A stretch of DNA of 64,000 nt from an uncultured Gemmatimonadaceae bacterium (GTDB lineage Bacteria > Gemmatimonadota > Gemmatimonadetes > Gemmatimonadales > Gemmatimonadaceae): contig CAVUDW010000003.1 of the NCBI GenBank assembly GCA_963740355.1, positions 128,001 through 192,000 of the forward strand, in the 5' to 3' direction. This document shows, one piece after another, positions 4,231 to 27,501 of this stretch. A program made the position numbers and the translations under genes. A model generated the notes under the pieces. That model did no database searches. It worked only from the letters and a program-made list of their open reading frames with translations, and was not told the DNA's origin. The first letter of the stretch is position 1, and each line of letters starts with the position of its first letter.

Positions 4231-4559
4231 CGATCGGGGCGCATCGCAGAGGGCGCCGGCGTCGCAGGGGCGCGACCGAGGCGCGACGCAACCGCCAGCA
4301 GCCCGATCGACATCACCGCAATCCAGCTGGTAGCGATTCCGACGCGCACTGATCGGCTGACGGCCGGAATACGGGTCAGAATCCAGTGCGGGACAAGCAG
4401 CAGGAGCAGTGTCAGCAGCAGGCCAACCGCCAGGCCGATCGCAATCGCCGTGATCCAGCGACGCTGAGGGACAGGCAATTCGATGTGCGCCGAATTCCCA
4501 CCGTTCCGGGCAGGCTCAGCCACACGTCTCGCGTCTTCTGACGTCACATGATCGCTCAT
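4227..4559 (-). CDS. Small two-TM membrane protein, first gene of the flavoprotein-Rieske operon
   Basis: Two hydrophobic helices; stop overlaps the flavoprotein start (ATGA coupling). Confidence 0.6.
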   Translation of the reverse strand: MSDHVTSEDARRVAEPARNGGNSAHIELPVPQRRWITAIAIGLAVGLLLTLLLLLVPHWILTRIPAVSRSVRVGIATSWIAVMSIGLLAVASRLGRAPATPAPSAMRPDR

Positions 4560-4593
4560 GTGACACAGGATGCACGTCCGTGTATCGAGCGTC

Positions 4594-4635
4594 CGTCAGG
4601 GATTACACGGAAAAGACGTCAGGCCTCGCCCGACA
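4594..4635. promoter_or_regulatory. Operator-like palindrome upstream of the flavoprotein-Rieske operon
   Basis: CGTCAGG-CCTCG-CCCGACA at 4617-4635 plus a second CGTCAGG half-site at 4594-4600. Confidence 0.65.
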
Positions 4636-4655
4636 ACAGGCGCGCTCAGCGGCAA

Positions 4656-5726
4656 CTACCGGACGGCAACTCCCTCAGAGGCCTGCTTTTCCCGACTCAG
4701 GTCGGTCCGCAACTGGTCGCGCAGGCCATTCACGGCGCGCCCGCGAATGTTGAGGATGCCTCCGCGCGGGAGATTGTCGAATCGGAATCGCCGCTCCACC
4801 ACCACGTACGTCGACCCGGACGCGCCATCGCCGTCGCGATCGATCACACTCATGACCTCGAGTGCGGCCTCGAAGTAGTGGTTCGCGTAGATCTGCTTCG
4901 ACGTGACCACGGTCGTGCCGCTGAGTTCAGGCGGCGTGTACACGACCGCATGTGTCACGCTGAGGATGGGCCGCAACCGGGCCACCGCGTCCTCCGACCA
5001 GTACAGCACGTCGGATACACCACCGGGTCGTCCCCGGGGGAAGGTCTTGAGATATGATGCGATCGCAGGCGCAGCCTGATTGAGAAAGCTCGACTGTGCC
5101 AGGACTGCGACGAAAGCATCGCTGGCCCGAATGCTGGGGCGATCGTCATAGATCGGCATGGATGCATTGCCGTGATCGCGGTACTCCTCGACATACGTCA
5201 CCAGTCGCTGGCGGGCGATCGCGGTGATCCGCGCCTGCAGATCGTTCGCTGACCAATCGACCTCATCTTGCAGCTTCTGCATCGCCGTCGCGGGCAACTT
5301 CGTTGTGCAGTCTCCGGGCCGACACTTCCGCAGGTCGTTGGCGTCCTGCTTCGTGACCACCACCCCGTCCACATCGCGCAGCACGGCGGGATCACTGAAG
5401 ATCCCGAATCGCGTGCGTGTTGGCGTCCGAAGCCAGCTGCGGAAGTCCTGCACGCGTCGCAGGAAGACGTCACGCGAGACGTTCATGCGCACGATGCCGA
5501 ACACCGCCACGTCGCGCTGGTCCTGCGTCGGAACGACGCGCACCAGGACCTCTCCACGCTCGACGGTGGTGGCTTCAGCTGAATCGAGTCGGATCCCATG
5601 GCGTTGCAACGCAGCGACGGCAGACGGGACCTGCGCCCGCAGCGGAACGACCAGCGCTACGCCCACACACCAGAACAGCCCCAAGCGTCGTGCGCGTTTC
5701 ATCAATGTCATGAGCGAGGTAAGCAC
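4656..5726 (-). CDS. Secreted/periplasmic hypothetical protein
   Basis: 356-aa ORF with signal-peptide-like N-terminus (true start may be ATG 5702 or 5711) and a CRPGDC cysteine pair. Confidence 0.7.
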   Translation of the reverse strand: MLTSLMTLMKRARRLGLFWCVGVALVVPLRAQVPSAVAALQRHGIRLDSAEATTVERGEVLVRVVPTQDQRDVAVFGIVRMNVSRDVFLRRVQDFRSWLRTPTRTRFGIFSDPAVLRDVDGVVVTKQDANDLRKCRPGDCTTKLPATAMQKLQDEVDWSANDLQARITAIARQRLVTYVEEYRDHGNASMPIYDDRPSIRASDAFVAVLAQSSFLNQAAPAIASYLKTFPRGRPGGVSDVLYWSEDAVARLRPILSVTHAVVYTPPELSGTTVVTSKQIYANHYFEAALEVMSVIDRDGDGASGSTYVVVERRFRFDNLPRGGILNIRGRAVNGLRDQLRTDLSREKQASEGVAVR

Positions 5727-12200: not shown

Positions 12201-14601
12201 CGGTAATGGCATCGGCGGACTGGATGCGAACAACGACTACCGGATCGACGTCGACGACTCACGCCTCCCACCTGCACCGTGGGCAAACGTGATTGCGAAT
12301 GCAGCCGGGGGTTTCCTCGTCACGGAGCGTGGCGCTGGCTGCACATGGGCAGAGAACGCGTATTTCTATCGGCTGACGCCCTGGCACAACGATCCCGTCT
12401 CCGATCCGGTCAGCGACGCGATCTATCTGCAGGACGACGACACGGAAGATCTCTGGTCCGCGACGCCGGCCCCGGTCGACGGCGATGGCCCGTACCGCGT
12501 GACGCATGCGCCAGGTTGCTCCACATTCGAGCACGAGCATGATGGCATCCGCACCGAACTGCGACTGGGCGTCCCGACGCGCGAGGCCGTCAAGCTGTCA
12601 GCGCTGCGGATCACGAACCTGACGGCGCGTACGCGTCGCCTGACCGTCACTGCGTACGCGGAGTGGACGCTTGGTGCGCGTCGCGACGAGTCGCAGTATC
12701 ACGTCCGGACGCGGTTCGCGGCCGAGCATCAGGCGGTCTTTGCGCAGAACCTGTTCGATCCGCTGTTTGCGGAGTGGACTGCGTTCCTTGCCACCAGTGA
12801 GGCGGTCAGCAGCTTCACGACCGACCGGTTGTCCTTTCTCGGCCGCAACGGCCACGTGGGCGCGCCGGCGGGGTTGCGTGAACGCGGGCTCGACGGGAGT
12901 GCCGGTGTGGGTCTCGACCCATGCGCGGCCCTCCAGATGACCATCACGCTTGCTGCTGGTGAGTCACGAGACGTCAGCATCCTGCTGGGCGCTGCCAGGA
13001 CGCACGCTGAGGCGCGCACGACCCTCGAGAGGCTTCGGCCGGCCGCGCAATCGCAGGCCGCGATTTCGGATGCCGTCACGGAGTGGAAGACGCGGCTCGG
13101 CGTGATCACGGTGTCCACGCCGGATGCCGCGTTCGACGCCATGCTCAACAAATGGTCGCTGTATCAGGCCCTCTCCTGCCGGATGTGGGCCCGCATGGGC
13201 CTGTACCAGAGCAGTGGGGCGTACGGTTTCCGCGATCAGCTGCAGGACACGATGGCCTTCGTCTATGCCGAGCCAGCCATCGCGCGAGAGCATATCCTGC
13301 GTGCGGCGGCCCGACAGTTCGAGGAAGGCGATGTCCAGCACTGGTGGCACGCCCACAGCGGACGCGGCGTGCGGACGCGCTTTTCCGACGATCTGGCCTG
13401 GCTGCCATTCGTGGTCGAACGGTATGTGACCGTCACCGGTGACCTGAGCGTACTCGACGAGTACGTGCCGTTCATCACCATGCGCCAGCTGGCACCACAC
13501 GAGCATGAGCTGTACGACCTTCCGACGGTGACCGACGAGCATGGCAGCATTTACGAACACTGTCGCCGTGCCCTGCGCCGTGCCTGCACGTTCGGTCCAC
13601 ATGGATTGCCGCTGATCGGCACCGGCGACTGGAACGACGGCATGAGCCGCGTCGGTGCCGACGGCAAGGGCGAAAGTGTCTGGCTGGCGTGGTTCCTGAT
13701 CAAGACGATGCGGAGTTTCGCCTTGCTGGCCGACGCCCGCGCCGACACGGCCGAGGCGGAGTTCATGCGAACGATGAGCGACCGCTACGCTGCAGCGGTC
13801 GAGGTGAGCGGCTGGGACGGTGGCTGGTATCGTCGCGCCTATTACGACAATGGACAGCCGATCGGCTCAGCCACGAGCGACGAGTGCAAGATCGACTCGA
13901 TCGCACAAAGCTGGAGCGTGATTTCCGGCGCAGCACCCGAGGCACGTCAGGCGCAGGCGATGAGCGCGATGGACGAACAACTGGTGCGGGACGACGATCG
14001 CCTGATCGTATTGCTCACGCCGCCATTCGATGGGACGACCAACGATCCAGGCTACATCCGTGGCTACCTGCCAGGGGTGCGTGAGAATGGTGGGCAGTAC
14101 ACACACGCGGCGCTGTGGGCCGTGCTTGCGACGGCGATGCGTGGCGATGGTGATCGCGCCTTCGAGCTGTTCCAGATGCTCAACCCTCTCACGCACTCAG
14201 CCACACCAGAGGCGGTCGCGAAGTACAAGGTCGAGCCGTATGTGATTGCGGCTGACGTGTACACATCACCATCTCATGTGGGCCGCGGCGGCTGGACTTG
14301 GTACACGGGCTCGGCGAGCTGGATGTATCGTGTTGGCCTGGAAGCCATTCTGGGCTTCGAGAAGGTTGGTGACACGCTTCGGTTCGCGCCGTCGGTGCCA
14401 GCCGATTGGCCCGCCTACAAGCTGACATATCGGTATGGCCGCACGTCGTATGAAATCGAGGTCCGATCGCCCGCACGTGTGAAGGCACACGGGGCACGGA
14501 TCTCCGTAGGCGGAGTGAGGGTCGCCGGGAATGCCATCCGGCTCGTCGACGACGGGCAGTCACGTACCGTGATCGTGGAGCCTGAAACCAGCACGTCCTG
14601 A
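6235..14601 (+). CDS. cgs: Cyclic beta-1,2-glucan synthase (Cgs/NdvB/ChvB type; GT84 plus GH94 domains)
   Basis: 2788 aa; EWLLDNYY, WMGWERKRGK, ITLDSDT, LLSHDLIEG, RWIRGDWQL, SWSGSMFEYLMP, GFRDQLQD, GDWNDG, RENGGQYTH, WYTGSA motifs. Confidence 0.93.
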   Translation: MSTRAERSRAEAADELLTGPIVGELLGADHLAARARAVARGQRLVTTQTPLRPARLLARLADTRRILTDAQARLISAAAAGVDAGPAAEWLLDNYYVVQEHLQEVRASLPGGYYRELPELATGPLTGYPRVYEMAISLISHTEARVDLENVDLYVESFQSVTPLSLGELWAMPAMLRLGLIESVRRMTLRTMQRLDEIGLATLWSDRILDASARGGTPLREALREFADAEHELTPHFVSRFLQLLRQTEGASPPLAWLEHWMRDAGVSPETAVAQSTHRVTLTQIMMANSITSLRDIGRRDWRIFVEKQSVMETVLQTDPSGHYPVMTFATRDRYRHVVERIAKKTGHRETSVAQWAIDLARSPVSDANAPLADVRTHVGYFLIDAGVTELERVAGYTPTLGERIERAVHTYPNVVFLGGLGTLVLLATSFVLLLVEPDARESIWLLLLLAFLPALDIAVTILNQLVTALLPPDTLPRLDLYTNGVPAAYRTAVVIPTLFGSVGDVHDALETLEVQFLANREAHLHFAILSDFTDAVTETTAADDAILDAALTGIQELNDRHVHERHVDDGIGPFHLLHRPRKWNAHEGVWMGWERKRGKLSDFNRLVRGESLSAFTVIAGDTNALMGVKYVITLDSDTVLPPDAAPSLVGAMAHPLNRAVYDAKRGMVRGYGILQPRVSVSLPSAHRSRFAAIASGHPGVDPYSTAVSDVYQDLYGEGTFTGKGIYDVDAFQVATHGRFPENTLLSHDLIEGNYARAGLATDVIVYDDYPTTYVAATRRKHRWIRGDWQLLPWLSRTVPGPDGPERNRLSLVSQWKIVDNLRRSTVEIAQLIFLVGGWTLLPGSALRWTLLGLGAIVAPWVTALIIAVLRPPLDKSWRAYYEAVAQDAVVSLEQALIAILTLPHQALVSADAIFRTLYRLLVSHRKMLEWQSASLVEKSLTDISAITHRAMRASVLLSGFGMLMVAANAIRRQQQLGLPLSGLEMTAFVVGVLTICWLVAPRVMVALSRPSSAARRVLSSGARDAAMRYAALHWQYFDTFVTAETHWLAPDNFQADPDPVVAMRTSPTNIGLQLLATVCAYDLALISALEMTSRLERTFATMASLRRYRGHFYNWYDLTDLHVLEPPYISTVDSGNMAGHLVALRQACLAIAGAEDAVRERLHALANAAYQYVVEMEFGFLYEPGRKLFTIGYHPESFTPDDSYYDLLASEARLASFIAIARNDVPLEHWFRLSRSLSRTAGSTALVSWSGSMFEYLMPVLVMRSLPYTLLAQTYDGVVERHMAYARTRNVPWGVSESAYNFRDRHQTYQYRAFGIPDLALKRGLGRDLVVAPYATALAAQVDPTRAMNNLRTLEAMGALGEYGFCDAIDYTRPPQGGRVAFVRAYFAHHVGMSLVSLTNVLMKDTWQDRFHADPLVKSVELLLHERVPRRLILQEAQSAQPDEARPSPETDRPVVREVNTMVPSAPRIALLGSVPYTVMLNHNGSGFSRYENIAVTRWRADSTLDDTGQFCYINDITAGRIWSAAHQPIGAPADSSRAWLASDRVTLHRVDGDIETRTEITVVPADSAEVRRVTLTNTGSEPHEIELTSYGEVAMTTQGADLAHPAFSNLFVETEWHGWCTAITATRRPRMPDDLQLWCVHVVDSGRERIGAVTCETDRARFIGRGNTVRDPSAMTTAGELSGTTGPVLDPIFALRTRVSVAPGQSVSVAFTTLVATTRQAAFELAGRYHDSHAAQRALDFAWTATQVELQALGITPSNGAVFQELASQLLFLGGSLAPPHDELRRSRGSQPLLWAHGISGDNAIVLATIDSIDGLPTLRELFAAHRYWRRRGLTVDLVVVNCHQADYLQELRDGITEAMVAANDASLMDRPGGVFIRRRELFLADDFLMLSATSRVHVTCDGRSLTRVLASADTFAADEATGALSTAVARAADRVTPAQVVVIDRSGPLATLVSALRPLVAPLIPRAPRQRHRAATVVSNDPPLQFGNGIGGLDANNDYRIDVDDSRLPPAPWANVIANAAGGFLVTERGAGCTWAENAYFYRLTPWHNDPVSDPVSDAIYLQDDDTEDLWSATPAPVDGDGPYRVTHAPGCSTFEHEHDGIRTELRLGVPTREAVKLSALRITNLTARTRRLTVTAYAEWTLGARRDESQYHVRTRFAAEHQAVFAQNLFDPLFAEWTAFLATSEAVSSFTTDRLSFLGRNGHVGAPAGLRERGLDGSAGVGLDPCAALQMTITLAAGESRDVSILLGAARTHAEARTTLERLRPAAQSQAAISDAVTEWKTRLGVITVSTPDAAFDAMLNKWSLYQALSCRMWARMGLYQSSGAYGFRDQLQDTMAFVYAEPAIAREHILRAAARQFEEGDVQHWWHAHSGRGVRTRFSDDLAWLPFVVERYVTVTGDLSVLDEYVPFITMRQLAPHEHELYDLPTVTDEHGSIYEHCRRALRRACTFGPHGLPLIGTGDWNDGMSRVGADGKGESVWLAWFLIKTMRSFALLADARADTAEAEFMRTMSDRYAAAVEVSGWDGGWYRRAYYDNGQPIGSATSDECKIDSIAQSWSVISGAAPEARQAQAMSAMDEQLVRDDDRLIVLLTPPFDGTTNDPGYIRGYLPGVRENGGQYTHAALWAVLATAMRGDGDRAFELFQMLNPLTHSATPEAVAKYKVEPYVIAADVYTSPSHVGRGGWTWYTGSASWMYRVGLEAILGFEKVGDTLRFAPSVPADWPAYKLTYRYGRTSYEIEVRSPARVKAHGARISVGGVRVAGNAIRLVDDGQSRTVIVEPETSTS

Positions 14602-14640: not shown

Positions 14641-15174
14641 GTGCTCGTGTTGCTTCTGACAAATACTCGCCGCGTTGCCTCGACACTGGCCGTTGCCGCC
14701 ATGACGGGGATGACTGCCTGTGGTGCGGATGGCACGACGGCCCCACGCCCGGTGCCAGTCGAGGATGGTCGCCTGACGCTGTCACAGGTTGGCGCCCAGA
14801 AGATTCCTGTGATGGTTGATGAGTTCAGCGTTGATTCCGGCGACGCGGCGCTGCGATACGAGACGTGGGTCGAAGGTGGCGAGCTCACCCTCACCTCGGT
14901 CGGTACGCCGCGTTATGAACTGAATGTGCGATACGCGACGTACGGCGTCACGTTCGTGGATGGCCAGAAGGTGCTGCGGTTGATTGGCACATCCCGCGAA
15001 CGCGACCACGGTCAGGTGCAGCATGACTCCCGGGGGGAGATGGTGCTGACGTCTGACTACATCGCACCGCTGGTGCACACGGCGAGTCCAGTGACGGGCG
15101 GTGTCCGCATGGCGTATCGCGTTCCCGGCGACGACGTGATCCGCGACCTCTTCTACCGTCGCGAGCCGGACTGA
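14641..15174 (+). CDS. Hypothetical lipoprotein
   Basis: Signal peptide ending in a lipobox-like MTAC; beta-rich mature region; start uncertain. Confidence 0.65.
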   Translation: MLVLLLTNTRRVASTLAVAAMTGMTACGADGTTAPRPVPVEDGRLTLSQVGAQKIPVMVDEFSVDSGDAALRYETWVEGGELTLTSVGTPRYELNVRYATYGVTFVDGQKVLRLIGTSRERDHGQVQHDSRGEMVLTSDYIAPLVHTASPVTGGVRMAYRVPGDDVIRDLFYRREPD

Positions 15175-15386: not shown

Positions 15387-15854
15387 CTAGCCGACGGTCT
15401 TCATCTCCCCAGACAAGCGCAGATCCTTTCGCCGTTCCACCTCGGCAAGCTCCGTCAGGAACGACAACGCCTGGCCGGCCGACATGGTCCATGGCTCGAA
15501 CGCCTGCATGCCCGAATGCCGCATCACCAACTCACGTCGCTGCGGCGTGTAGGCCTCATCGAAGCTGATCATCTTCATCGACCAATCGATGAAGCTCCGC
15601 ATGTCGATCGGGGTGCAGCTGAGAATCTCGGTATCGTGGTGTCGAGTGTCACGCACGATCCGGTTGTACAGCTGGTTGACGTGCACCCGGCGTCCCTCGA
15701 TGGCCTGCAGGAACGCGCCACCGCTGAAGCACAGAATTCCACTGATGCCGTTCGGCGTATTGAACGCCTTGGCCGACGCGCGAATCTGCCGGTAGTCATC
15801 GAGACTGAACCCGGGACGGGCGACGCTGGCGTAGATGAGTCGTATGATCTGCAT
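15387..15854 (-). CDS. Stand-alone BLUF blue-light photoreceptor
   Basis: RLIYAS (Tyr), N...GISGIL, FLQAIEG (Gln), DTRH, FIDWSM (Trp/Met) BLUF signature; short C-terminal helical cap, no output domain. Confidence 0.92.
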   Translation of the reverse strand: MQIIRLIYASVARPGFSLDDYRQIRASAKAFNTPNGISGILCFSGGAFLQAIEGRRVHVNQLYNRIVRDTRHHDTEILSCTPIDMRSFIDWSMKMISFDEAYTPQRRELVMRHSGMQAFEPWTMSAGQALSFLTELAEVERRKDLRLSGEMKTVG

Positions 15855-16251
15855 GCCTCGCAGTCTCGGTAGGCATTGGCATCAGGTTGAGTCTTGGTCA
15901 CGGCACGGCACGCCAGTCCTACCAGGATCCTGCATCGTTCATCGATAGCAGGGATCCTTGCAATTGGCACACGAGTCCATCGCGACGATTGCGGCGCATG
16001 TTTCTCGACGATCGGATATTCGGACCGGCTAGTCTCAAGAATGGCACCAAGATGAAGAGCAGCTCAGAAAACACGGGGATTCCCCTACAAACATGGCCGA
16101 TTCTGGCCTGTTTCGCACGCAAGATTGGAACGCCGCAACTCATTAAATGCCATACACATAAAGGCGTTACAGCTTCACCTGACAACTGCCGAGCATTGCA
16201 GGAACAGCGGACGATTCCGAGGCACATCCCGCTCCTCACTTCCTCACGAAG

Positions 16252-18513
16252 ATGGACGACCTCCTCAGGGACTTCCTGACCGAAAGCAGCGAGAACCTTG
16301 GCAAGCTCGATAACGACATCGTCGAACTCGAGCAGCATCCCGAGGACACCGCGCGCTTGAATTGCGTCTTCCGCACCATTCACACGATCAAGGGAACGTG
16401 CGGATTTCTTGGACTCGTTCGGCTGGAAGGCATTGCACATGCGACCGAGAACGTGCTCGACGCACTGCGCGCTGGCCGTCTGACGGTTCAGGAGGAATTG
16501 ATCGGCGACGTGCTCGCGGCCATCGACTGCATCAAGATGGTGCTGCAGACGCTCGAGACCACGGAAGTGGAACCGGAAGGTGACGACGCGGCACTGATCA
16601 CGCGGCTCGAGCGCTGGCTTCCCGCGTCGGAGCGTGTGCATGAGTTGCCTGACGCGAGCCAGATTGCCGCAATCGCAGCGGGGCCGCTGGTGCCGGTCGA
16701 GCGCGCCGCCATCAGTGCTGCGGAGGCGCCACTCGCTCCGAGCGCCGGAAGCGATGCGAGTGAGGCACAGGGGCGCGATGGTGCGTCATGGGATGGCGTC
16801 GAGCGTCGGAATGGCAAGCCCGAAGCGCACGTTGCCGAGAGCACGCTGCGCGTCGGCGTCGACGTCCTCGACAAGCTGATGAACCTCGTCGGCGAGCTGG
16901 CCCTCGGGCGCAACCAGCTGTTGCAACTCGCCGCCTCGGAGGAGGAGTCACCCTTCGCCAAGCCGGTGCAACAGCTGGATCGCGTCACGACCGACCTGCT
17001 CGAGGCGGTGATGAAGACGCGCATGCAGCCGATCGGGAATGCCTGGACGAAGTTGCCGCGGTTGGTGCGTGACCTGTCGCAGTCGAGCGGCAAGCACATC
17101 ACCCTCGTGATGCATGGCGCGGAGACCGATCTCGATCGGCAGATCCTGCAGGCGATCCAGGATCCCCTCACACACATGATCCGCAATTCCGCCGACCATG
17201 GCGTGGAATCGCCATCGGTCCGTCGTGAGGCGGGCAAGTCGGAGACCGGCACCATTCGTCTCAGCGCCCGCCATGAGGGCGGCCATGTGGTGATCGAGAT
17301 TGCGGATGATGGCGCCGGCATCAATGCGGCCCGCGTGCGTCGGAAGGCGGTCGAGCGCGGCCTGATCAAGGCGGACGTCGCCGATGCCATGCCCGACGCG
17401 CAGATCCTGCGCTACATCTTCGAGCCTGGCTTCTCGACCGCCGAGCAGGTGACCAACGTCTCGGGACGAGGTGTTGGGATGGACGTCGTCCGCAGCAATA
17501 TCGATGCGATCGGCGGCACGGTGGAACTGTCGTCCCAGATGGGGCTGGGCACGACGGTTCGGATCAAGATTCCGCTGACCCTTGCCATCATCTCCGCGCT
17601 GCTCGTCGGCACGGCGGGTGAATCGTTCGCGGTGCCGCAAATCGGCATCGTCGAGCTGGTCCGGGTGACGGAGGATCAGCAGCATCTAGTGGAAGACGTG
17701 CACGGTGCACAGTTCTATCGCCTGCGCGAAACACTGCTGCCACTCGTGCCGCTGCGCACGCTGCTCAACCTCGGCGCCGGCTCTCCGACCGCGACATACA
17801 ACATCGTGGTCTGTCAGGTGGGCGAGGCGCGATTCGGGCTCGTCGTCGAGGAGGTCTTCGATACCCAGGAGATCGTGGTCAAGCCGGTGGGCCGCTTGAT
17901 CAAGCATCTGTCGGCCTACGCCGGGTGCACGATCACCGGCGACGGGCGCGTGATCATGATCCTCGACACGACCGGCATCGCCAACATCGCGAACGTCGCC
18001 AGCAGCCAGACGCGCGACGAGGCGGAGCGTGCCTCGCAGCAGGCCGAGCGCGACCGTCTTGCCGCACAGGTCGATGCGAAGGAAAGTGTGCTGCTGTTCG
18101 ATGCCGGCCTCCCTGCCCTGCAGGCAGTGCCGCTCTCGCTGGTGGCTCGCCTCGAGGAGTTCCCGCTCTCCGCCATGGAAGAAGCGGACGGGCATTTCCT
18201 GGTGCAGTACCGCGGGGAGCTGATGCCGGTGATCGCATCGAGCCCGTCGGTCGACCTGCGAAGCATGGATCCGCGACCGGTGATCGTCTTCAGCGACCGG
18301 ACCCGGACCATCGGACTCGCGGTGAACGAGATCCGCGACATCGTCGAGGACCACGTCACCCTGCAACGACGCGCCACACGCGTTGGAGTGCTCGGCGTGG
18401 CAGTGATCGCTGGTCGTGCGACGGAAATGATCGACACCGACTACTTCCTGCGGCATGCGCACGGTGAAAGTGCCACCGCCACCGACTCCACTTCCATGAC
18501 GGTGGGCGCATGA
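16252..18513 (+). CDS. cheA: Chemotaxis histidine kinase with two C-terminal CheW-like domains
   Basis: Hpt IHTIKG, HMIRNSADHG, DDGAG, GFST, SGRGVGMDVV, tandem CheW-like domains. Confidence 0.96.
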   Translation: MDDLLRDFLTESSENLGKLDNDIVELEQHPEDTARLNCVFRTIHTIKGTCGFLGLVRLEGIAHATENVLDALRAGRLTVQEELIGDVLAAIDCIKMVLQTLETTEVEPEGDDAALITRLERWLPASERVHELPDASQIAAIAAGPLVPVERAAISAAEAPLAPSAGSDASEAQGRDGASWDGVERRNGKPEAHVAESTLRVGVDVLDKLMNLVGELALGRNQLLQLAASEEESPFAKPVQQLDRVTTDLLEAVMKTRMQPIGNAWTKLPRLVRDLSQSSGKHITLVMHGAETDLDRQILQAIQDPLTHMIRNSADHGVESPSVRREAGKSETGTIRLSARHEGGHVVIEIADDGAGINAARVRRKAVERGLIKADVADAMPDAQILRYIFEPGFSTAEQVTNVSGRGVGMDVVRSNIDAIGGTVELSSQMGLGTTVRIKIPLTLAIISALLVGTAGESFAVPQIGIVELVRVTEDQQHLVEDVHGAQFYRLRETLLPLVPLRTLLNLGAGSPTATYNIVVCQVGEARFGLVVEEVFDTQEIVVKPVGRLIKHLSAYAGCTITGDGRVIMILDTTGIANIANVASSQTRDEAERASQQAERDRLAAQVDAKESVLLFDAGLPALQAVPLSLVARLEEFPLSAMEEADGHFLVQYRGELMPVIASSPSVDLRSMDPRPVIVFSDRTRTIGLAVNEIRDIVEDHVTLQRRATRVGVLGVAVIAGRATEMIDTDYFLRHAHGESATATDSTSMTVGA

Positions 18514-18986
18514 GCACCAGAACCGCCGCACCCGGTACGAGCATACGCACCGGCCAGCTCGAGTACGTCACGTTCAGGCTCGCCGAGCAGTGGCTCGGCA
18601 TCCCGGTGATGGTCGTCCAGGAGGTGCTGGTGGCGATGCGCATTGCGCGCGTGCCGATGGCGCCGGATGCGATTGCCGGCTTTCTCAACCTGCGCGGGCA
18701 GATCGTCACGGCCGTCGACCTGCGCACCACGCTGCAGCTCGACGCCCGCGCCGCGGATGCAGAGATCATGAATGTCGTCGTCCAGCATGAGGGCGAGCTG
18801 TTCGCCTTCATGGTCGACGAAGTGGGTGATGTGGTGTCGGTGGAAAGCGACACCGTCGAACCTCCGCCAGCGACCCTCGACGCGCGTTGGCGAATGGCCT
18901 GCTCCGGCATCGTCCGTCGGGACCGCGGGCTGCTGCTGGTCATGAATGTTCACGAAGTGCTTCGCCTCGAGCACGTGTCCGGCTGA
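18510..18986 (+). CDS. cheW: Chemotaxis coupling protein
   Basis: VPMAPDAIAGFLNLRGQIVTAVDL; ATGA overlap with cheA. Confidence 0.95.
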   Translation: MSTRTAAPGTSIRTGQLEYVTFRLAEQWLGIPVMVVQEVLVAMRIARVPMAPDAIAGFLNLRGQIVTAVDLRTTLQLDARAADAEIMNVVVQHEGELFAFMVDEVGDVVSVESDTVEPPPATLDARWRMACSGIVRRDRGLLLVMNVHEVLRLEHVSG

Positions 18987-19082
18987 GCCCCCAGTGTGGC
19001 GGGCTCCCGACTGAGTTACAGAGGCGAGCCACACAGCAGCACATCCACCCATCGACACCACCATCCGCGCATCCCACTGACC

Positions 19083-21137
19083 ATGTCCACGAATCGAATC
19101 CCGACGCCCGGCACACGATCCACCAAGCTCGCTGGCAAGAGCCGCGCATCAGCCGGTGCGATCTCGCACGGTGACAGTGCTGCCAAAGACAGCGCAGAGA
19201 GTCTCGCCCTTGCCGCCAGGGTGGCGGATCTCGAAGCGCAGGTGGCGGCGATCAACACCTCGATGGCGGTGGTCGAGTTCGATCTCGATGGCACGGTGCT
19301 CACCGCCAATGCCAACTTCCTCAGCGTGATGGGCTACACGCTGCCAGAGATCCAGGGCCGGCACCATTCGATGTTCGTGGATGAGGCATACAAGGCGAGC
19401 GCGGAATACCGCGATTTCTGGGCGAAGCTGAACCGCGGCGAATTTGACGCGGCGGAATATCGTCGTGTCGCGCGCGGTGGTCGTGAGGTCTGGATCCAGG
19501 CGTCGTACAACCCGATCCGCGACCGGTCCGGGCGCGTCGTGAAGGTCATCAAGTACGCGTCGGACATCACCAGGCAGAGCACGGCGATGGCCGATTTCGA
19601 AGGACAGGTCTCGGCCATCGGCAAGTCGAATGCGGTGATCGAGTTCAACCTCGACGGCTCGATCCTCACGGCGAACGACAATTTCCTCGGGCTGCTCGGC
19701 TACACCCTCGATGAAGTGCGAGGCCAGCACCACTCCATGTTCGTCGACGAGGCGTACCGCAACAGCAACGCCTACAAGGAGTTCTGGGCCAAGCTCAATC
19801 GCGGCGAGTACCACTCCGACGAGTTTCGCCGTATTGGCAAGGGCGGCAAGGTGTGCCACATCCAGGCGACCTACAACCCGATCCGAGGCCGCGATGGGCG
19901 CCTGGTGAAGGTGGTCAAGTACGCCACCGACAGCACGGCGCTCGTGAAAATGCGCGCCGAGATGGCGCTCTTCAAGCCGATGGTGGAGTCCGCACGAGTC
20001 AACCTGATGCTCTGCGATCTCGATTTCAACATCAAGTACATCAACCCTGCGTCACTCGAGACGCTGACCCGCATCGAGAAGCACCTGCCGGTGAAGGCCA
20101 GCCAGGTCGTCGGCAGCAAGATCGACATCTTCCACAAGGATCCCGCGCACCAACGCGCGATGTTGTCGACCGACAAGAACCTGCCGCACAACGCCAAGAT
20201 CCGCGTCGGCCCGGAGACGCTCGACCTCAACGCCGTCGCCATCTACAACGAGGCCGGTGAGTACGTCGGCCCGATGGTGAACTGGTCGGTGATCACGGAT
20301 CAGGTGCGCATGGCAGACGACTTCGAGGCCACTGTGGCGGCGATTGCAAGCGTCGTCAGTTCCTCCTCGACCGAACTCGAAGCGAGCGCCCAGGGAATGG
20401 CGGCATCGTCCGAGGAGACGACGCGCCAGGCACAGGCAGTCGCCGCCGCGTCGGAACAGGCGACGCGCAACGTGCAGACCGTGGCCAGTTCCGCCGAGGA
20501 ACTCACGGCGAGCATCCGCGAGATCGCCGGGCGCGTGCAGGAAGCGTCACAGATCTCACAGGTAGCGGTGAAGCAGGCGAGCGATACGACCGAGACGATG
20601 GCGAAGCTCGGCATCTCCTCGCAGGAGATCGGCCAGGTGGTGAAGGTCATCACGTCCATCGCACAGCAGACCAACCTGCTCGCCCTGAACGCCACGATCG
20701 AGGCCGCCCGTGCCGGCGAGGCAGGAAAGGGCTTCGCCGTGGTCGCCAACGAGGTCAAGGAGCTCGCACGCCAGACGGCGCGCGCGACGGAGGAGATTGG
20801 CAGCAAGATCGCGGGCGTCCAGAGCGAAACCGCGTCGGCCGTGACTGCCATCCGCGAAATCACGAGCGTGATCAACAAGATCAACGAGATCTCGACCACC
20901 ATCGCGGGGGCCGTCGAAGAACAGAACGCGGCCACCAGCGAGATCTCGCGCAATGTCGGCGAAGCCGCCCGCGGCACGGCGGAGGTCAGTTCGAGCATCT
21001 CGACGGTCACGATGGTGGCCGCGGAAGGGGGCCGCACCGCCGAGAACATCCGCACGGCGGCGGGTGGCTTGTCGGTGGAGTCGGAGCGGCTGAACAGTGC
21101 GGTGACCGACTTCCTCACCAAGCTGCGGAAGATCTGA
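19083..21137 (+). CDS. Soluble triple-PAS methyl-accepting chemotaxis protein
   Basis: Two repeated PAS domains (HHSMFVD...FWAKLNRGE), a third Aer2-like PAS ([10 protein letters not shown]), MCP tip [30 protein letters not shown]; no TM segment. Confidence 0.92.
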
Positions 21138-21139
21138 CC

Positions 21140-21508
21140 ATGAAGCGCATTCTGGTGATCGATGATTCGGGGACCATCCGGAAGGCCATTCGCCGCATTC
21201 TGGAGCAGCTGAACTATGCGGTGACGGAGGCGGAGGATGGCGAGCAGGCACTGCACGTGCTTGCCGTGGGCGACAGGTTCGACGCCGTCCTCTGCGACAT
21301 CGACATGCCGAACATGGATGGCTTGCAGTTCCTGAGCGCTGTCTCGGCGCGACCGGCGCTGCTCCCGCCACCGATCATCATGTGCACGACGCACACCTCG
21401 TTCGACAAGATCCAGACCGCGCTCACGCTTGGGGCCTCCGAGTACATCATGAAGCCCTTCGACGCCACGATCATCGGCTCGAAGCTCGAGGCGTGCGGGG
21501 TTCTGTGA
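21140..21508 (+). CDS. cheY: Single-domain response regulator
   Basis: VIDD, DIDMPNMDG, KPF; position in che operon. Confidence 0.9.
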   Translation: MKRILVIDDSGTIRKAIRRILEQLNYAVTEAEDGEQALHVLAVGDRFDAVLCDIDMPNMDGLQFLSAVSARPALLPPPIIMCTTHTSFDKIQTALTLGASEYIMKPFDATIIGSKLEACGVL

Positions 21509-22593
21509 GCGTGCACGCCGACCCTATCCGTGTGCTGATCGTCGACGACAGCGCGGTGATTCGTGGCGCGCTTGGGCGCATCATCGACGCCGAGGCCGAC
21601 ATGACCGTGGCCACCACTGCACCGAACGGCAAGGTGGCGCTCGACGCGCTGCGGCACACCAAGATCGATGTCGTGCTGCTGGATGTCGAAATGCCGGAGA
21701 TGGATGGGTTGACGGCGCTGCCGTTGATCCTCGCCGCCTACCCCGACACGCGCGTGATCATGGCCAGTTCGCTCACGCAACGCGGGGCGGAGGTCACGAT
21801 GCATGCCCTCGCGATGGGTGCGGCGGACTACATCGCGAAGCCGGCGGCGAAGTCGGGCTCGGCGACCCTCGCCGCAATCAGCACCGAGATCGCCTCGAAG
21901 GTCCGAGCGATCGGGCGTGCTGCGCGTGGACGCCGGCCGGTGGTGGTCGGCGCGGCGAGACCGGCCTCACCTGCGCGCACCGAGCTCCTTGCCGCGCGCA
22001 GCAGTGACGCCCCGCCCCGGATCGTGGCCATCGCCTCGAGCACCGGTGGCCCCAATGCCCTGGCCGACGTGTTGTCCGCACTCCCGAAGGACTTCCCCCT
22101 GCCGATCCTGATCACACAACACATGCCTGCCGTCTTCACTGGCCTGCTCGCCTCGCGGCTCGAGCGCGACACCGGACGCACCTGCGTGGAAGCGAAGGAT
22201 GGCGACCTGATTCGTGCGAACTGCACCTACGTGGCCCCGGGCGAACACCACATGGTCGTCCTCACGAACGAAGGGCAACCATTTGTCCGACTGACGAAGA
22301 CGGAGCCTGAAAACTTCTGTCGTCCCTCTGCCGACCCAATGCTGCGTTCGATCGCGGCCGTCTATGGCGCATCGACGCTGGCGATCGTGCTGACCGGGAT
22401 GGGGGAGGATGGTTTGCGCGGCTGCGAGGAGGTGAAGCATCGCGGCGGTCGCATCCTGGTGCAGGATGAGGCGACCAGTGTGGTCTGGGGCATGCCTGGT
22501 GCCGTGGCGAACGCGGGGCTCGCATCCGCCGTGCTTCCATTGTCGAAGGTCGCCAACGCCATCATGGCCCAGTGTGGAGCGCTGGCCGCATGA
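21505..22593 (+). CDS. cheB: Chemotaxis methylesterase
   Basis: Receiver domain plus ASSTGGP, QHMP, LTGMGEDG, VWGMP; GTG start overlaps the cheY stop. Confidence 0.95.
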   Translation: MSVHADPIRVLIVDDSAVIRGALGRIIDAEADMTVATTAPNGKVALDALRHTKIDVVLLDVEMPEMDGLTALPLILAAYPDTRVIMASSLTQRGAEVTMHALAMGAADYIAKPAAKSGSATLAAISTEIASKVRAIGRAARGRRPVVVGAARPASPARTELLAARSSDAPPRIVAIASSTGGPNALADVLSALPKDFPLPILITQHMPAVFTGLLASRLERDTGRTCVEAKDGDLIRANCTYVAPGEHHMVVLTNEGQPFVRLTKTEPENFCRPSADPMLRSIAAVYGASTLAIVLTGMGEDGLRGCEEVKHRGGRILVQDEATSVVWGMPGAVANAGLASAVLPLSKVANAIMAQCGALAA

Positions 22594-23441
22594 TCACCCC
22601 CGACGAGTATGCCTTCCTTGGCGAGCTGCTGAAGAAGCACAGCGGCCTCGCACTTGGCCCCGGCAAGGAGTACCTGATCGAGAGTCGACTGCCGCCAGTG
22701 GCCGTCACGTATGGCCACGCGGACGTCACCGCGCTGATCGCGGCACTGCGCAAGGGGGCGCCAGCGGCCGTCGTGAAGAACGTGTGCGACGCGATGACGA
22801 CGAACGAGACGCTATTCTTCCGTGACAACAAGCCATTTGTCGCGCTCGAGAAGGAGATCCTGCCGGCGGCCGCCCGCCGCGCGCGCGAGCAGGGTCGGCC
22901 GGTGCGCATCTGGTGTGCGGCCAGCTCCACCGGTCAGGAGCCGTACTCGATCGCGATGATCGTCGCTCAGACGGAGTCGCAGTTGGGTGGTGCAAAGGTC
23001 GAGATCATCGCCACCGACTACTCCGCCGCAGCGCTGGCGCGCGCGAAGTCTGGCGTGTACAACCAGTTCGAGGTGCAGCGCGGGCTGCCGGTAACGCACC
23101 TGATGAAGTACTTCACGCCAGTGCCTGAGGGTTTCGAGCTGAAGCCGGAGATTCGCAATCGGGTGCAATACCAGGAGATCAACCTCCTCGATCCGTTTCC
23201 GGCGTACTGGCAGTTCGACATCATCTTCTGTCGCAATGTGCTGATCTACTTCGATGTGCCGACGAAGAAGGACGTCATCGACCGCATGGCGCGGACGATG
23301 ACGCGAGGGGCGAGCCTCTTTCTCGGCGGAACGGAGAGCACACTCGGTATCACCGATTCCGTGGTGCGCGTTCCGAACCACCCGTCAGGCGTCTTTTGCA
23401 AGCCGAACGAACTCGAGTTGCACACCTCGATCGCAGCCTGA
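22590..23441 (+). CDS. cheR: Chemotaxis methyltransferase
   Basis: TTNETLFFRD, IWCAASSTGQEPYS, FCRNVLIYF. Confidence 0.95.
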   Translation: MITPDEYAFLGELLKKHSGLALGPGKEYLIESRLPPVAVTYGHADVTALIAALRKGAPAAVVKNVCDAMTTNETLFFRDNKPFVALEKEILPAAARRAREQGRPVRIWCAASSTGQEPYSIAMIVAQTESQLGGAKVEIIATDYSAAALARAKSGVYNQFEVQRGLPVTHLMKYFTPVPEGFELKPEIRNRVQYQEINLLDPFPAYWQFDIIFCRNVLIYFDVPTKKDVIDRMARTMTRGASLFLGGTESTLGITDSVVRVPNHPSGVFCKPNELELHTSIAA

Positions 23442-23501: not shown

Positions 23502-23549
23502 ATGTCGTTCGTCACCGCTACTCGAGAGTGGCGGGGTGTGAGTCTGGCG

Positions 23550-23864
23550 CTATTCGAGCCAGACCGTCACCTGCCGGTTGGGCTCGTCGAGCGTGAAGAT
23601 GGAGCGAGGATAGAGGACCTCCTGTCGATTGAGGTCCTCGGTGATGGCATCGAGCGGTATTTGCTCGGCCCGAATCTTCGTGACTACATCAGCAGGGATC
23701 AGTTCGATCAGCCATTTGGCACTGCGCGACGGCAGGGCTACCCGCACCCGCTCCTCACCATCGCGCACGACGCGGACCATCAGGTTCTTTGCCGGCGTGC
23801 CGGGCTCCGCCTTGGTGCCGGCGGAGAAGAAGCTGCGAACCCAGGTGTAGGGGCAGGCTGACAT
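23550..23864 (-). CDS. Hypothetical protein (104 aa)
   Basis: Protein-like composition from MSACPYTW; fills the gap between cheR and the thioesterase gene. Confidence 0.6.
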   Translation of the reverse strand: MSACPYTWVRSFFSAGTKAEPGTPAKNLMVRVVRDGEERVRVALPSRSAKWLIELIPADVVTKIRAEQIPLDAITEDLNRQEVLYPRSIFTLDEPNRQVTVWLE

Positions 23865-24087
23865 GCGGAATCCAGGGCTGAATGGTACGGGTGACGTGTC
23901 CGCGATCACGAGGAGAGTATCGTCACACTCACACCGATCGGTGAGCTGAATTCCGTGACGAATGATCAGCGCCTGCTGGGCTTCGAATGCTGCCACGCGC
24001 CGACTCGACGCCGGGTGCGAGTGCCAGCGATATTACGCGTGTCACACCATGTGATCGCCACAGCCGCTCTCGTCACTTTCGTGCACC

Positions 24088-25149
24088 ATGAATCTTTGGT
24101 TCCGCCTCATCTGGCTGTGGATCGTCGGCCGCTCGCGAACGCCGGTGCACTCACTCGGCCCGTGCCGAACACCCTTTCGTGTCAGCCTGTTCGACCTCGA
24201 CCTGTTTCGTCACATGAACAACGGTCGGTACTTCACCATCATGGACCTCGCACGGGTCGACCTCATGCACCGCTCGGGAACACTGGTGAAGCTCAATCGC
24301 GCGGGGCTTTATCCGGTGGTGACAGCCGAGTCGTTGATCTTCCGCAAGTCACTGAACTGGCGTCAACGATTCGAGATCGAATCGGAAGTCGTCGCATGGG
24401 ATGAGAAATCGATCGTGATGTCGCAGCGATTCTTCATTGGCTCGGACGAGGTGGCTGGTGCACTTGTGCAGGCACGCTTCCTTCGTCGCAGTGGTGGCAG
24501 TGTCCCAACCGCGGAACTGCTTGCGCTTCTTGGCGAGGAGATCCCGCATCCCCCCAAGCCCGCGTGGCTCGACGACTGGATGACGCTGTTCGGGAGTGGG
24601 ATCCCTCGCGCCGTTCGCGCGGCCTCGATGATACTGGCCCTGTCGATAGCGCTGCCTGGATGCGGGCATCCGCCTGCCTTCTCCCCCGCCCCGTTACCCA
24701 ACATCTCCCGAAGCGAGACGAGAATGCCGACAGACGACGCGATCTCAGCGATCGCCAGTGCGCGCGCGCGGTCGAATGCCGCCATCGCGGCGCACGACAC
24801 GAGTGCGATCGCACAAGAGTGGATGCCCGACATTCATGTCACGTCATCCACCAGCTCGCAAACCGCGGGCGCGGATGCAAATGTGCGTGCCATGGCCGCG
24901 CAGTTTGCACGCCGCCCCGACACCAAGTGGGTACGCACCCCACGAACGATCCGAGTCTTTGGAGCATGGAATGTCGGCGCCGAAGAAGGGGACTGGGTCG
25001 GGACCTGGACAGATCCGGATGGCGCGATTCGCGTCACCGGGACGTACCTCGCGCAGTGGCGCTTCACGGACGGTCGGTGGCGGATTCAGGCGGAGGTGTT
25101 CGTTCCGCTGGCCTGCGAAGGGGGTGCCTACTGCCGACAACATCCGTGA
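24088..25149 (+). CDS. Acyl-CoA thioesterase (hot-dog fold) in frame with an NTF2/SnoaL-like (DUF4440-like) domain
   Basis: DLDLFRHMNNGRY thioesterase motif; C-terminal SNAAIAAHD...GTYLAQWRFTDGRWRIQAE NTF2-like domain. Confidence 0.7.
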   Translation: MNLWFRLIWLWIVGRSRTPVHSLGPCRTPFRVSLFDLDLFRHMNNGRYFTIMDLARVDLMHRSGTLVKLNRAGLYPVVTAESLIFRKSLNWRQRFEIESEVVAWDEKSIVMSQRFFIGSDEVAGALVQARFLRRSGGSVPTAELLALLGEEIPHPPKPAWLDDWMTLFGSGIPRAVRAASMILALSIALPGCGHPPAFSPAPLPNISRSETRMPTDDAISAIASARARSNAAIAAHDTSAIAQEWMPDIHVTSSTSSQTAGADANVRAMAAQFARRPDTKWVRTPRTIRVFGAWNVGAEEGDWVGTWTDPDGAIRVTGTYLAQWRFTDGRWRIQAEVFVPLACEGGAYCRQHP

Positions 25150-26208: not shown

Positions 26209-27501
26209 ATGTCGACGTCTATGCACGCTACACCGGAAACGCTGGAAGCTCTCGAGCCGACGCTTCTTCCGGACGGTCCGATTCTCGTCGGCACCGACAC
26301 CGCCCCTGATTCCGATGCGGCCTTTCCGCTGGCAGCCGCCCTCGCAGCCCGAGCCAAGGTCGAGGCGATCGCCTTGACGGTGGTCGAACCGACCAACCTG
26401 CCGATCTACGGCGTGGATGGTATGGTGGTCTCGATGGAGACCGCTGCCGAGACCGAGTCGGCGCGCGAGTCAGCCACCCGTGCGCAGCTGACACGGATGG
26501 TCGCGGCCAACGCCGCGTGGCCGATCGTCGTCAAGACGGGCGAGCCAGCCCGCGAAATCGCCTCGGCCGCGGACAAGATGCACGCACGACTGGTGGTCGT
26601 CGGGCGAGGACGGCACCGTGGCATCGACCGCCTCTTCGGCGGTGAATCGGTGCTGCGAATGGTGCAGCTGGGTGATTCCCCGGTGCTCGCGGTCGAGGAG
26701 GGCCTGACCTCACCGCCGCGCCGCGTCGTGATCGCCACCGATTTCAGTCCATTCAGCCTCTACGCGGCGCAGGTCGCCATGAGTGTCGTGGCACCCGACG
26801 CAACGGTGTGGTTGCTGCATGTTGGCCCCCCGTTCGACGAAACCGTCCCCTACCTGAAGGAGCGCGCTGACGCATATCGCGAACAGTCGGCGGTGGCGTT
26901 CACGCGAATGAAGGCACTCCTGAACCGCAGTCGCGCGACGTTCCAGAGTGTGGTGCTCACCGGGAGCGCTCCCGACCAGCTGCTGAAGTACCTGGAAGAC
27001 CAGAAGGCCGACCTGGTCGTGACGGCAACACACGGATACGGGTTCATCCGGCGCATGGTGCTTGGGAGCGTTGCGGCGACGCTGATCCGGAACGCGCCCT
27101 GCTCGGTGCTGGTCGTCCCCGGTTCGGCGCGCACGATTGCGGCGGCACGTGCGCGCACGGCGCCGAATGCGCGGACACGCACATTCACCGCAGACTCGTT
27201 CGATGCAGAACTGGCAGCGTTCACATCCCGAAATGCTGGTCGACGTTGCCTGGTGGAGGTCGACCAGGATGATCTCGGAGCCCAGGTGCTTGGGCACGAG
27301 TTGCAGCTCGTCGGCGCAACCTACGATCGGCACGACAGCGGCGTCGCGCTGATGTTCGGCACCTCGACGCTGAAGGGACTCCATCTCACGCATGCGATCA
27401 CGGGCGTGACGGAGATCGACCTCGCGAGCAACGCCGGCGGGGAAGATCAGGTCCTGCGCATAGTCAACGCGAGCGGCCAGACCCTCGTGACGCTGTCCTG
27501 A
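26209..27501 (+). CDS. Tandem-domain universal stress protein with an extra C-terminal domain
   Basis: Two USP domains (ILVGTD...GGESVLR; VIATDFS...LGSVAATLIRNAPCSVLVV) plus about 110 aa C-terminal beta domain. Confidence 0.9.
   Translation: MSTSMHATPETLEALEPTLLPDGPILVGTDTAPDSDAAFPLAAALAARAKVEAIALTVVEPTNLPIYGVDGMVVSMETAAETESARESATRAQLTRMVAANAAWPIVVKTGEPAREIASAADKMHARLVVVGRGRHRGIDRLFGGESVLRMVQLGDSPVLAVEEGLTSPPRRVVIATDFSPFSLYAAQVAMSVVAPDATVWLLHVGPPFDETVPYLKERADAYREQSAVAFTRMKALLNRSRATFQSVVLTGSAPDQLLKYLEDQKADLVVTATHGYGFIRRMVLGSVAATLIRNAPCSVLVVPGSARTIAAARARTAPNARTRTFTADSFDAELAAFTSRNAGRRCLVEVDQDDLGAQVLGHELQLVGATYDRHDSGVALMFGTSTLKGLHLTHAITGVTEIDLASNAGGEDQVLRIVNASGQTLVTLS

Follow-up and report, generated by a model that had tools for sequence, protein, structure and literature searches.

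To our knowledge, the signaling partners of short BLUF photoreceptors are known in a few cases only, and blue-light sensing for swimming in non-cyanobacterial phototrophs is largely open, with the partner of the photoactive yellow protein (PYP) still unknown. In Spongiibacter nanhainus CSC3.9, a BLUF gene (I6N98_15960) is located immediately upstream of a che/motAB cluster. In its deletion mutant, as reported, blue light no longer induces the che genes and the motile distance in soft agar is altered, and the flow of blue-light information proposed in the same account leads to CheA, CheW, CheY, and CheR (PMC8805636). In Achromatium, methyl-accepting chemotaxis proteins (MCPs) that carry a fused BLUF domain have been recorded by domain annotation (2026 preprint). 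Stages 1 and 2 of the F7 chemosensory systems are defined by a gene order with STAS, cheD, and mcpA-like genes, and the Aer2-type members of these stages are described in the same source as unclear in function and linked to stress response (PMC7184735). In the present work, a window of 64,000 nucleotides (nt) from an uncultured Gemmatimonadaceae bacterium was analyzed (assembly GCA_963740355.1, contig CAVUDW010000003.1, positions 128,001 to 192,000; all coordinates below are those of the window). It contains a gene for a stand-alone PixD-type BLUF protein, divergent from a complete chemotaxis operon which is named che3 hereafter. Comparison of related genomes strongly supports a putative functional link between BLUF and che3, and the two are a promising, though as yet unproven, candidate for a module of light-guided swimming.

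The BLUF alignment was searched against one genome per species and 56 loci were retrieved. The 14 closest, in which BLUF is 43–73% identical to that of the window, were treated as related and the other 42 as belonging to other lineages. In 12 of the 14 related loci a divergent cheA is placed directly upstream of BLUF, and the remaining che genes of these 12 run on as far as the contig permits. The synteny of BLUF with the che cluster, which the initial annotation had singled out as a check of its proposal, is thus conserved. In L004, just 160 nt are available upstream of BLUF and the presence of cheA cannot be judged. The glucan-synthase flank of the window is retained only in L001 and L002, the two closest loci, and therefore BLUF is linked to the che operon rather than to its neighborhood at large. 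Among the 42 loci of other lineages, a CheA–CheW–CheR set is found nearby in a single case (L017, a Rubrivivax metagenome-assembled genome). The adjacency of BLUF and che genes exceeds chance.

Within the family, an even sample of 251 Gemmatimonadaceae genomes was surveyed with a BLUF match threshold of E 1e-10. Matches were obtained in 12 genomes, and in nine of them the protein is covered over its whole length. All nine full-length carriers have BLUF at a distance of 145–397 nt from the cheA of che3 and on the opposite strand, and the adjoining CheA is 68–100% identical to that of the window. The same type of CheA, 47–67% identical to that of the window and with a match that extends through the second CheW-like region, is present in 17 further genomes with no BLUF orthologue. 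The identity of BLUF is 39–54% in the sampled genomes outside the window's own genome (G000), compared with the 43–73% of the related loci, and that of the che proteins is 64–89%; BLUF thus diverges at the faster pace. The pairing has been kept despite a drop of BLUF to approximately 40% identity and a changing outer flank, and this argues for selection on the pairing.

A maximum-likelihood tree of CheA was constructed from 24 sequences, namely the window, 13 BLUF-linked loci, eight BLUF-less loci, and the two other CheAs of the host genome as outgroups. Three loci with no or partial cheA (L004, L006, and L013) were left out, as was L066, which is the same place as L014. The 14 BLUF-linked CheAs form one clade (support 100/99), and the BLUF label needs a single change on the tree. 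Therefore, BLUF was gained once and then retained through four genera. In genomes of the same genus, which were examined for signs that the block had been inserted or deleted cleanly, the flanks are poorly conserved.

The BLUF gene (15387..15854, minus strand) encodes a protein of 155 amino acids (aa), which matches Pfam PF04940 with E 8e-28 (96.8 bits, cut-off 25) over residues 4–94 and profile positions 2–92 of 92. Its alignment to PixD is free of gaps and Tyr8, Asn32, Gln50, Trp91, and Met93 are all present. We take Tyr8, Gln50, Trp91, and Met93 (PixD numbering) to be the photocycle residues and Asn32 to be in contact with the flavin. Across 30 relatives, Q50 and M93 are conserved in at least 90%, and Y8, N32, and W91 in all. 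Both features for which the protein had initially been singled out, that is, intact photocycle residues and no output domain, were recovered, and a second domain is absent from the 155 aa. No fused or longer forms were found by a word-based search, which is weak evidence.

Among solved structures, phmmer matched BLUF to PixD Slr1694 (E 6e-32, residues 1–142) and to TePixD (5e-30, residues 3–139), and both matches take in the C-terminal helices. Matches to BlsA, BlrB, and AppA were far weaker (1e-15 to 5e-13). The AlphaFold2 model of the protein has a predicted local distance difference test (pLDDT) value of 89.1. Its best Foldseek match is 2hfo (PixD Slr1694), with template-modeling (TM) scores of 0.87/0.95, a root-mean-square deviation of 1.3 Å over 140 columns, and 41% identity. 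As modeled, BLUF is PixD-type across its full length, C-terminal helical extension included, and flavin photochemistry may be expected of it. A search of the whole host genome gave this BLUF gene alone (n = 1). In two other genomes of the family, second BLUF copies occur which are 39–45% identical to that of the window (L068 in G151 and L069 in G184). One of them adjoins SnoaL, DinB, and PTPS genes, and the other is located within a 387-aa open reading frame (ORF) beside methylmalonyl-CoA mutase genes.

The operon on the other side runs on the plus strand in the order cheA-cheW-MCP-cheY-cheB-cheR, with diagnostic Pfam domains in every gene, in full agreement with the complete divergent operon of the initial annotation, coordinates included. 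CheA (16252..18513, 753 aa) has Hpt, dimerization, HATPase, and CheW domains. Its C-terminal ~170 aa, as read from the sequence, resemble a second CheW-like domain, and in relatives two stretches are scored as CheW by Pfam. The cheW gene (18510..18986, 158 aa; PF01584, E 2.9e-31) is followed by the MCP gene (19083..21137, 684 aa) and by cheY (21140..21508, 122 aa), the product of which is a single receiver domain (PF00072, E 1.8e-28). The top NCBIfam model of the latter is CheY, with a score under the cut-off, and its identity across 13 aligned related operons is 66–88%. The cheB gene (21505..22593) encodes a receiver and a methylesterase, found by Pfam on the ORF 21382–22593, and its probable GTG start overlaps the cheY stop. 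The last gene is cheR (22572..23441; PF01739, E 9e-55, and PF03705).

The ORF of the receptor opens at a GTG (18996), and the ATG at 19083 is the probable start. Pfam and structure matches place two PAS_3 domains, an Aer2-type heme PAS, and the MCP signaling domain in the protein. Its highest Kyte–Doolittle 19-mer score is 0.98, as against 3.01 for the membrane MCP located at 37022–39769 of the window. Because of the lack of a hydrophobic or transmembrane segment, the MCP is regarded as soluble. This is the soluble PAS receptor proposed initially, and its PAS content can now be specified. The third PAS (residues ~330–430) matches the Aer2 PAS structures 6ceq (1e-20), 3vol (6e-19), and 4hi4, the proteins compared being Aer2 of Vibrio cholerae and Pseudomonas aeruginosa. 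The motifs FHKDPAHQR and NW are retained in it, and heme binding is predicted. Two methylation-consensus motifs were found, and the C-terminal arm, counted from the hairpin tip, has 138 aa.

Membership of che3 in the F7/Aer2 systems was considered and rejected, on the grounds of the missing HAMP, the 138-aa arm, the absence of STAS, cheD, and mcpA-like genes, and the other gene order. The signaling arm of class 36H is ~126 aa long. HAMP repeats had no Pfam match in the MCP, and the NCBIfam Aer2 model gave 155 bits on it against a cut-off of 1200.

The receptors of the related operons differ at their sensor end. The complete MCPs of BLUF-linked operons carry one or two PAS_3 domains in 11 out of 11 cases and a globin in none (0). 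The Aer2-type PAS is kept in 12 of the 13 aligned BLUF-linked MCPs; it is absent in L065, and its His is replaced in L001. In the eight BLUF-less che3 operons, the MCP is globin-coupled in five, has PAS_3 only in one, and two GAF domains in two. One of the five globin MCPs (L059) shows a weak Globin match and, in addition, two PAS_3 domains. BLUF occurs only where PAS_3 is present and globin is absent from the entire BLUF clade; therefore, a change at the sensor end of the receptor took place in the clade in which BLUF was gained. Within one che operon family, this end has thus been swapped several times.

Some of these BLUF-less receptors deserve a separate description. The MCPs of L060, L061, L063, and L064, and with a weak match that of L059, are soluble proteins with an N-terminal globin and PAS (HemAT-like), and the two GAF domains are those of L070 and L071.

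The host genome (5.45 Mb, 94.5% complete) contains pufL and pufM, and therefore the host is considered a bacteriochlorophyll phototroph. It also contains flhA, and 1.1 kb from it a fliA with a match above the model cut-off. In the family survey, pufLM is present in all nine BLUF carriers, as against 33 of the 251 genomes overall, and the carriers are all flagellated (9/9). Among the 17 genomes with che3 and no BLUF, pufLM occurs in just three. In genus g50, the block is carried by its two phototrophs, and the other four g50 genomes with flhA (G050, G109, G214, and G242) gave no match for BLUF, che3 CheA, or pufLM. The relation between BLUF and phototrophy is an association and not a rule, and the carriers are kin. 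Phototrophic Gemmatimonas in culture bear a flagellum, which is drawn as polar according to a figure legend (PMC9862903).

Regarding the output of the operon, flhA is found in 26 out of 26 genomes with a che3-type CheA, as opposed to 85 of the 251 overall (three genomes, G134, G033, and G007, enter the overall flhA and CheA tallies only, and the claims on BLUF and che3 are independent of them). There are three CheA genes in the host genome, as in each of the nine BLUF carriers, and two in two genomes of the same genus without the block. Five flagellated relatives (G191, G051, G072, G028, and G080) yielded no che1-type CheA. In four of the five the best match is a che3-like CheA, near-tied in G191 with a che2-sized one, and in G080 the che3-like CheA is the only one of the genome. 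Given the missing che1-type CheA, the che3-like system is likely the motor controller in these relatives. In several of them the che3-like CheA is located 20–57 kb from flhA. Most simply, the che3 operon family would be a flagellar chemotaxis system, present in the host as a second copy.

Of the other two che clusters of the host, che1 consists of cheA, cheR, cheD, and a receiver gene among fliC, fliD, and fliS, and its presence weighs against a flagellar output of che3. The third cluster of the host is of the che2 type (L058, at ~2156000–2167400 of contig C2 in G000) and includes cheY, cheA, cheC/cheX, genes for TPR proteins, two DUF4388 genes, and a Roadblock/LC7 gene, with no MCP, CheB, or CheR. 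DUF4388 is presumably the PATAN domain, as in PixE, and Pfam detects no receiver domain in these DUF4388 proteins. A CheA dimerization-domain match is present in 221 of the 251 family genomes, and many of the frames are about as long as the CheA of the che2-type cluster. As only 85 genomes have flhA, the che2 type may be a widespread non-flagellar pathway.

The divergent intergenic region between BLUF and cheA (15855..16251) is 397 bp long with 54.7% G+C, as compared with 65.0% for the window, in line with the relatively AT-rich region of roughly 400 bp described initially. In the related loci it is between 141 and 463 bp long and little conserved except for a sigma-28-like motif and a short stretch beside the BLUF start. 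A scan of the 397 bp with the sigma-70 consensus gave no match. The sigma-28 (FliA)-like motif TACAGCTT-N12-GCCGAGCA is located at 16168..16195 on the plus strand, 56 nt 5′ of the cheA ATG. It has 12 of 16 matches to TAAAGTTT-N11-13-GCCGATAA, which we take to be the sigma-28 consensus, and 3% of 300 shuffles attain this score. In 10 of the 14 related loci the best sense-strand match is found 42–69 nt before cheA, with scores reaching 15/16 in L005 and L006 and 13/16 in L012. In the remaining four (L001, L002, L003, and L014) the best match is elsewhere (146–320 nt), and 9–65% of the shuffles equal it. The flagellar/che1 cluster of the host genome holds a 15/16 motif. The sigma-28-like promoter motif before cheA is suggestive only. 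Of sequencing runs containing this DNA, metagenome DNA runs with small shares were listed, and no RNA run.

A similar arrangement was found outside the family. In L017, BLUF is divergent from a short soluble MCP gene which is followed by cheY, cheA, a gene for an MCP with two PAS_3 domains and HAMP, cheW, cheR, and cheB. Among 201 genomes of the Rubrivivax family, two more hold a BLUF of this type. One of the two (BLUF 48% identical) repeats the divergent BLUF–che arrangement, which is thus present in two of the three genomes of the lineage. Judging from gene order, the BLUF–che pairing recurs in a second phylum.

The PAS_3 domains of the MCP in a BLUF-linked che operon of the Rubrivivax family (L075 in G402, 4318–5028) are 54–57% identical to those of the MCP of the window, with 39% identity between the CheAs. 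Exchange of a sensor module between phyla may account for this value, or simply a strong conservation of this type of PAS_3, the identities having been compared without a control.

The initial annotation knew of no description of a BLUF–che coupling, which is too strong a statement in view of the Spongiibacter nanhainus case, as it is reported (PMC8805636). In the open-access papers and bioRxiv preprints searched, no paper describing a BLUF–che module in Gemmatimonadota was found. A tie between a short BLUF protein and motility signaling, and a BLUF gene neighboring che genes, are already known. New are the PixD type of the protein, a receptor that is soluble and combines PAS_3 with a heme PAS, an operon of flagellar type, and an occurrence restricted to Gemmatimonadaceae that are phototrophic.

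The initial proposal that BLUF feeds blue light into the Che array is sustained as far as the conserved synteny, the flagellar-type che genes, and the phototrophic hosts are concerned; the coupling via the receptor or CheA gained no such backing. Our preferred reading, to which we give slightly less than an even chance, is that the PixD-type BLUF provides blue-light input to an oxygen-sensing cytoplasmic che3 array by protein binding and so biases the rotation of the flagellum. In this mechanism, che3 would act as one of the three Che systems of the cell, with a soluble and methylatable receptor and the heme PAS as a gas or oxygen sensor. BLUF, in either its dark or its light state, would bind a component of the cytoplasmic array. 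The likeliest partner may be the PAS_3 sensor region of the MCP, which is favored because BLUF and PAS_3 co-occur, and the alternative would be CheY, by analogy with the binding of the receiver protein PixE by PixD. Blue light would then shift the kinase output of CheA and, through CheY, the frequency of flagellar reversal, with adaptation supplied by CheB and CheR. The net result would be a joint tactic response to light and oxygen, useful to an aerobic phototroph avoiding blue light and oxygen. The binding partner of BLUF and the flagellar output are both putative.

A narrower version, in which BLUF docks on the PAS_3 region, the site of the globin in related operons, and a joint blue-light/oxygen signal steers the cell from photo-oxidative conditions, is considered unlikely. 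Complex prediction with residues 30–445 of the MCP, CheY, and BLUF gave no answer (score 0.00, mark 0.32); it was run without controls and speaks neither for nor against binding, and three chains are unlike the calibration of the tool.

Several observations weigh against blue-light input to che3. In L013, where BLUF is 45% identical, 743 nt are available upstream and contain no cheA; this locus counts as a miss and may be a paralogue. G151 and G184 have their second BLUF copies at a distance from che genes, and three genomes of the same genus without BLUF are also without the che3 CheA and the 104-aa gene which follows cheR. The pairing has, by the CheA tree, a single origin in the family, so that the many loci represent one event and its retention, and adjacent genes can be kept or lost together regardless of function. 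The BLUF orthologue is absent from 24 of the 33 phototrophs sampled, and the link to phototrophy may be phylogenetic inertia, as the carriers belong to four genera rich in phototrophs. The sigma-28 motif of the window scores just 12/16, and in several relatives, as well as upstream of fliC, such motifs do no better than chance. The third Rubrivivax-family genome with the L017-type BLUF has no che genes nearby. The source genome in that family has five BLUF genes, and it is therefore less surprising that one of them stands beside a che operon. The sole published case points, as described, to an effect on che transcription and not on signaling (PMC8805636).

Three other explanations of the pairing were weighed. 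BLUF and che3 have a divergent promoter region in common, and AppA-PpsR, BluF-BluR, and BlsA-Fur are pairs in which a BLUF protein acts on a regulator. BLUF might therefore control che3 transcription through light-dependent contact with an unlinked DNA-binding protein, setting the amount of the array and not giving a fast signal. Short BLUF anti-repressors are established, in accordance with a review of the field (PMC5812497), and in Spongiibacter the deletion of BLUF is reported to end the blue-light up-regulation of the adjoining che genes (PMC8805636). On the contrary, the window has no DNA-binding gene within or beside the conserved block, a DNA-binding domain is missing from BLUF, and the intergenic region, with its range of 141–463 bp, is little conserved; we regard transcriptional control as quite improbable. 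It is also unlikely, to a lesser degree, that the partner of BLUF lies outside che3 and that the adjacency is inherited synteny. The candidates in such a case would be the DUF4388 proteins encoded by the che2-type cluster, or else some regulator of the photosynthesis gene cluster. All nine carriers are phototrophic, but a general photosynthesis regulator would not be expected to be missing from 24 of 33 phototrophs. Likewise, BLUF is closest to PixD, the partner of which, PixE, is a PATAN-CheY protein, and DUF4388 and Roadblock proteins are encoded in the second che cluster of the genome, but the DUF4388 proteins have no receiver domain by Pfam. The single origin of the pairing and the paralogous BLUF copies elsewhere agree with an outside partner; its persistence over four genera despite a changing outer flank, and the occurrence of a similar pairing both in a second phylum and in print, as reported (PMC8805636), do not.

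The remaining alternative accepts that BLUF feeds che3 and places the output in a stress or developmental response, like that of the Aer2 F7 systems of Vibrio and Pseudomonas, and not in the flagellum. The Aer2-type heme PAS of the receptor points in this direction, as do the unclear, stress-linked function given for stages 1 and 2 of those systems (PMC7184735) and the separate che cluster embedded among flagellin genes. However, the che3-type CheA is restricted to genomes with flhA (26/26), five flagellated relatives have no che1-type CheA that could be found, and che3 encodes a plain single-domain CheY together with CheB and CheR. The gene order and the receptor architecture are also unlike those set out for F7 stages 1 and 2 (PMC7184735). 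A non-motility output is thus held to be improbable.

Directly beyond cheR, a conserved gene of 104 aa is placed in convergent orientation (23550..23864, minus strand; ATG at 23864, within the ORF 23550–23996). It is 60–78% identical across BLUF-linked loci. In the family survey it was found in 11 of the 251 genomes, directly after cheR in eight of the nine BLUF carriers and elsewhere in the genome in three others, where its neighbors offer no functional clue. The protein has no Pfam or NCBIfam family match, and its relatives form 95 clusters, the source names shown being all of Gemmatimonadota. The predicted structure has a pLDDT of 62.9, a value too low for searching by fold, and the look-alikes of the protein in the atlas are unnamed clusters. 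The gene seems to travel with the BLUF–che block in most relatives and is a candidate member of the module. An ORF on the plus strand (23502–23861, 119 aa) was considered as a seventh operon gene and rejected. It has stops in relatives and the conserved gene is on the opposite strand; therefore, it is regarded as a shadow ORF.

On the BLUF side, a gene similar to those of cyclic glucan synthases is located at 6235–14601 (plus strand). Its 2788-aa product has GT2, glucoamylase-like, and GH94 domains, an architecture which is presumably that of the cyclic beta-1,2-glucan synthases (NdvB/Cgs). It is followed on its 3′ side by a lipoprotein-like ORF without known family (14641–15174), which is convergent with the BLUF gene, and BLUF is therefore probably monocistronic.

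Further downstream in the window, a 353-aa ORF (24088–25149, plus strand) encodes a 4HBT thioesterase together with a DUF4440 domain. The match to it is split in two, with TGA stops, in two genomes of the same genus, and a further two have the DUF4440 part alone. In a 430-aa protein (26209–27501, plus strand), DUF5335 is fused with two universal stress protein domains. A cbb3-type oxidase cluster is found at 42900–47331 (plus strand), with ccoN and ccoO in a single 815-aa ORF, followed by ccoP and a ccoG-like gene. Beside it are a PAS histidine kinase (40854–42539, minus strand) and the membrane MCP mentioned above (37022–39769, plus strand), which has HAMP domains.

The module offers a small and defined set of candidate partners, all encoded beside the sensor, and its genus includes cultured, flagellated, and phototrophic strains in which direct genetic and biochemical tests are possible. 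If the narrower version with docking on PAS_3 is true, BLUF would be the first flavin photoreceptor shown to act in trans on a methyl-accepting transducer, and the two would parallel the sensory rhodopsin/Htr systems in a soluble, bacterial form. The che operon itself, the sensor end of which differs between relatives (globin, GAF, or PAS_3 next to a BLUF gene of its own), is a useful case for the study of sensory-input evolution. If the genes are neighbors by descent only, the value of the work is a better annotation of the che cluster of Gemmatimonadaceae.

Two known systems serve as working analogies. In the sensory rhodopsin/Htr pairs of haloarchaea, a separate photoreceptor signals to a methyl-accepting transducer. 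The chromophore is retinal there and would be flavin here, all components are soluble here, and the binding between them is putative. In HemAT, a soluble heme-based MCP drives aerotaxis, and the BLUF-less relatives of che3 have globin-coupled MCPs. The Aer2 F7 systems of stages 1 and 2 (P. aeruginosa Che2 and V. cholerae cluster III) also have, as described, a soluble MCP with a heme PAS encoded in the operon (PMC7184735). The FHK..PAHQR and W motifs of the Aer2 heme PAS are kept in the present MCP, which differs in its two extra PAS_3 domains, in having no HAMP repeats by Pfam, and in its arm of 138 aa. The che3 operon, unlike F7 stages 1 and 2 as they are defined, is without a STAS, cheD, or mcpA-like gene and has a different gene order (PMC7184735).

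In Spongiibacter, as here, the BLUF gene is directly beside a chemotaxis cluster. The che cluster is downstream of BLUF in that species, and the effect measured concerned che expression and spreading in soft agar (PMC8805636), whereas the genes of the window are divergent. The receptor in the operon is here a soluble PAS_3/heme-PAS MCP, and the hosts are phototrophs. PixD (Slr1694) and TePixD, which belong to cyanobacterial phototaxis, share with the present protein the short BLUF form and the full-length fold with two C-terminal helices, at 41% and 40% identity, respectively. Both PixD and the present BLUF are genetically tied to a motility-signaling pathway of the CheY world, in a cyanobacterium in the one case and in a Gemmatimonadaceae bacterium in the other. 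The PixD system has the PATAN-CheY partner PixE; here, there is no adjoining pixE and the neighbors are the lipoprotein-like ORF and cheA. PixD-PixE acts on the type IV pilus pathway, whereas the present BLUF stands beside a complete flagellar-type CheA/W/MCP/Y/B/R operon.

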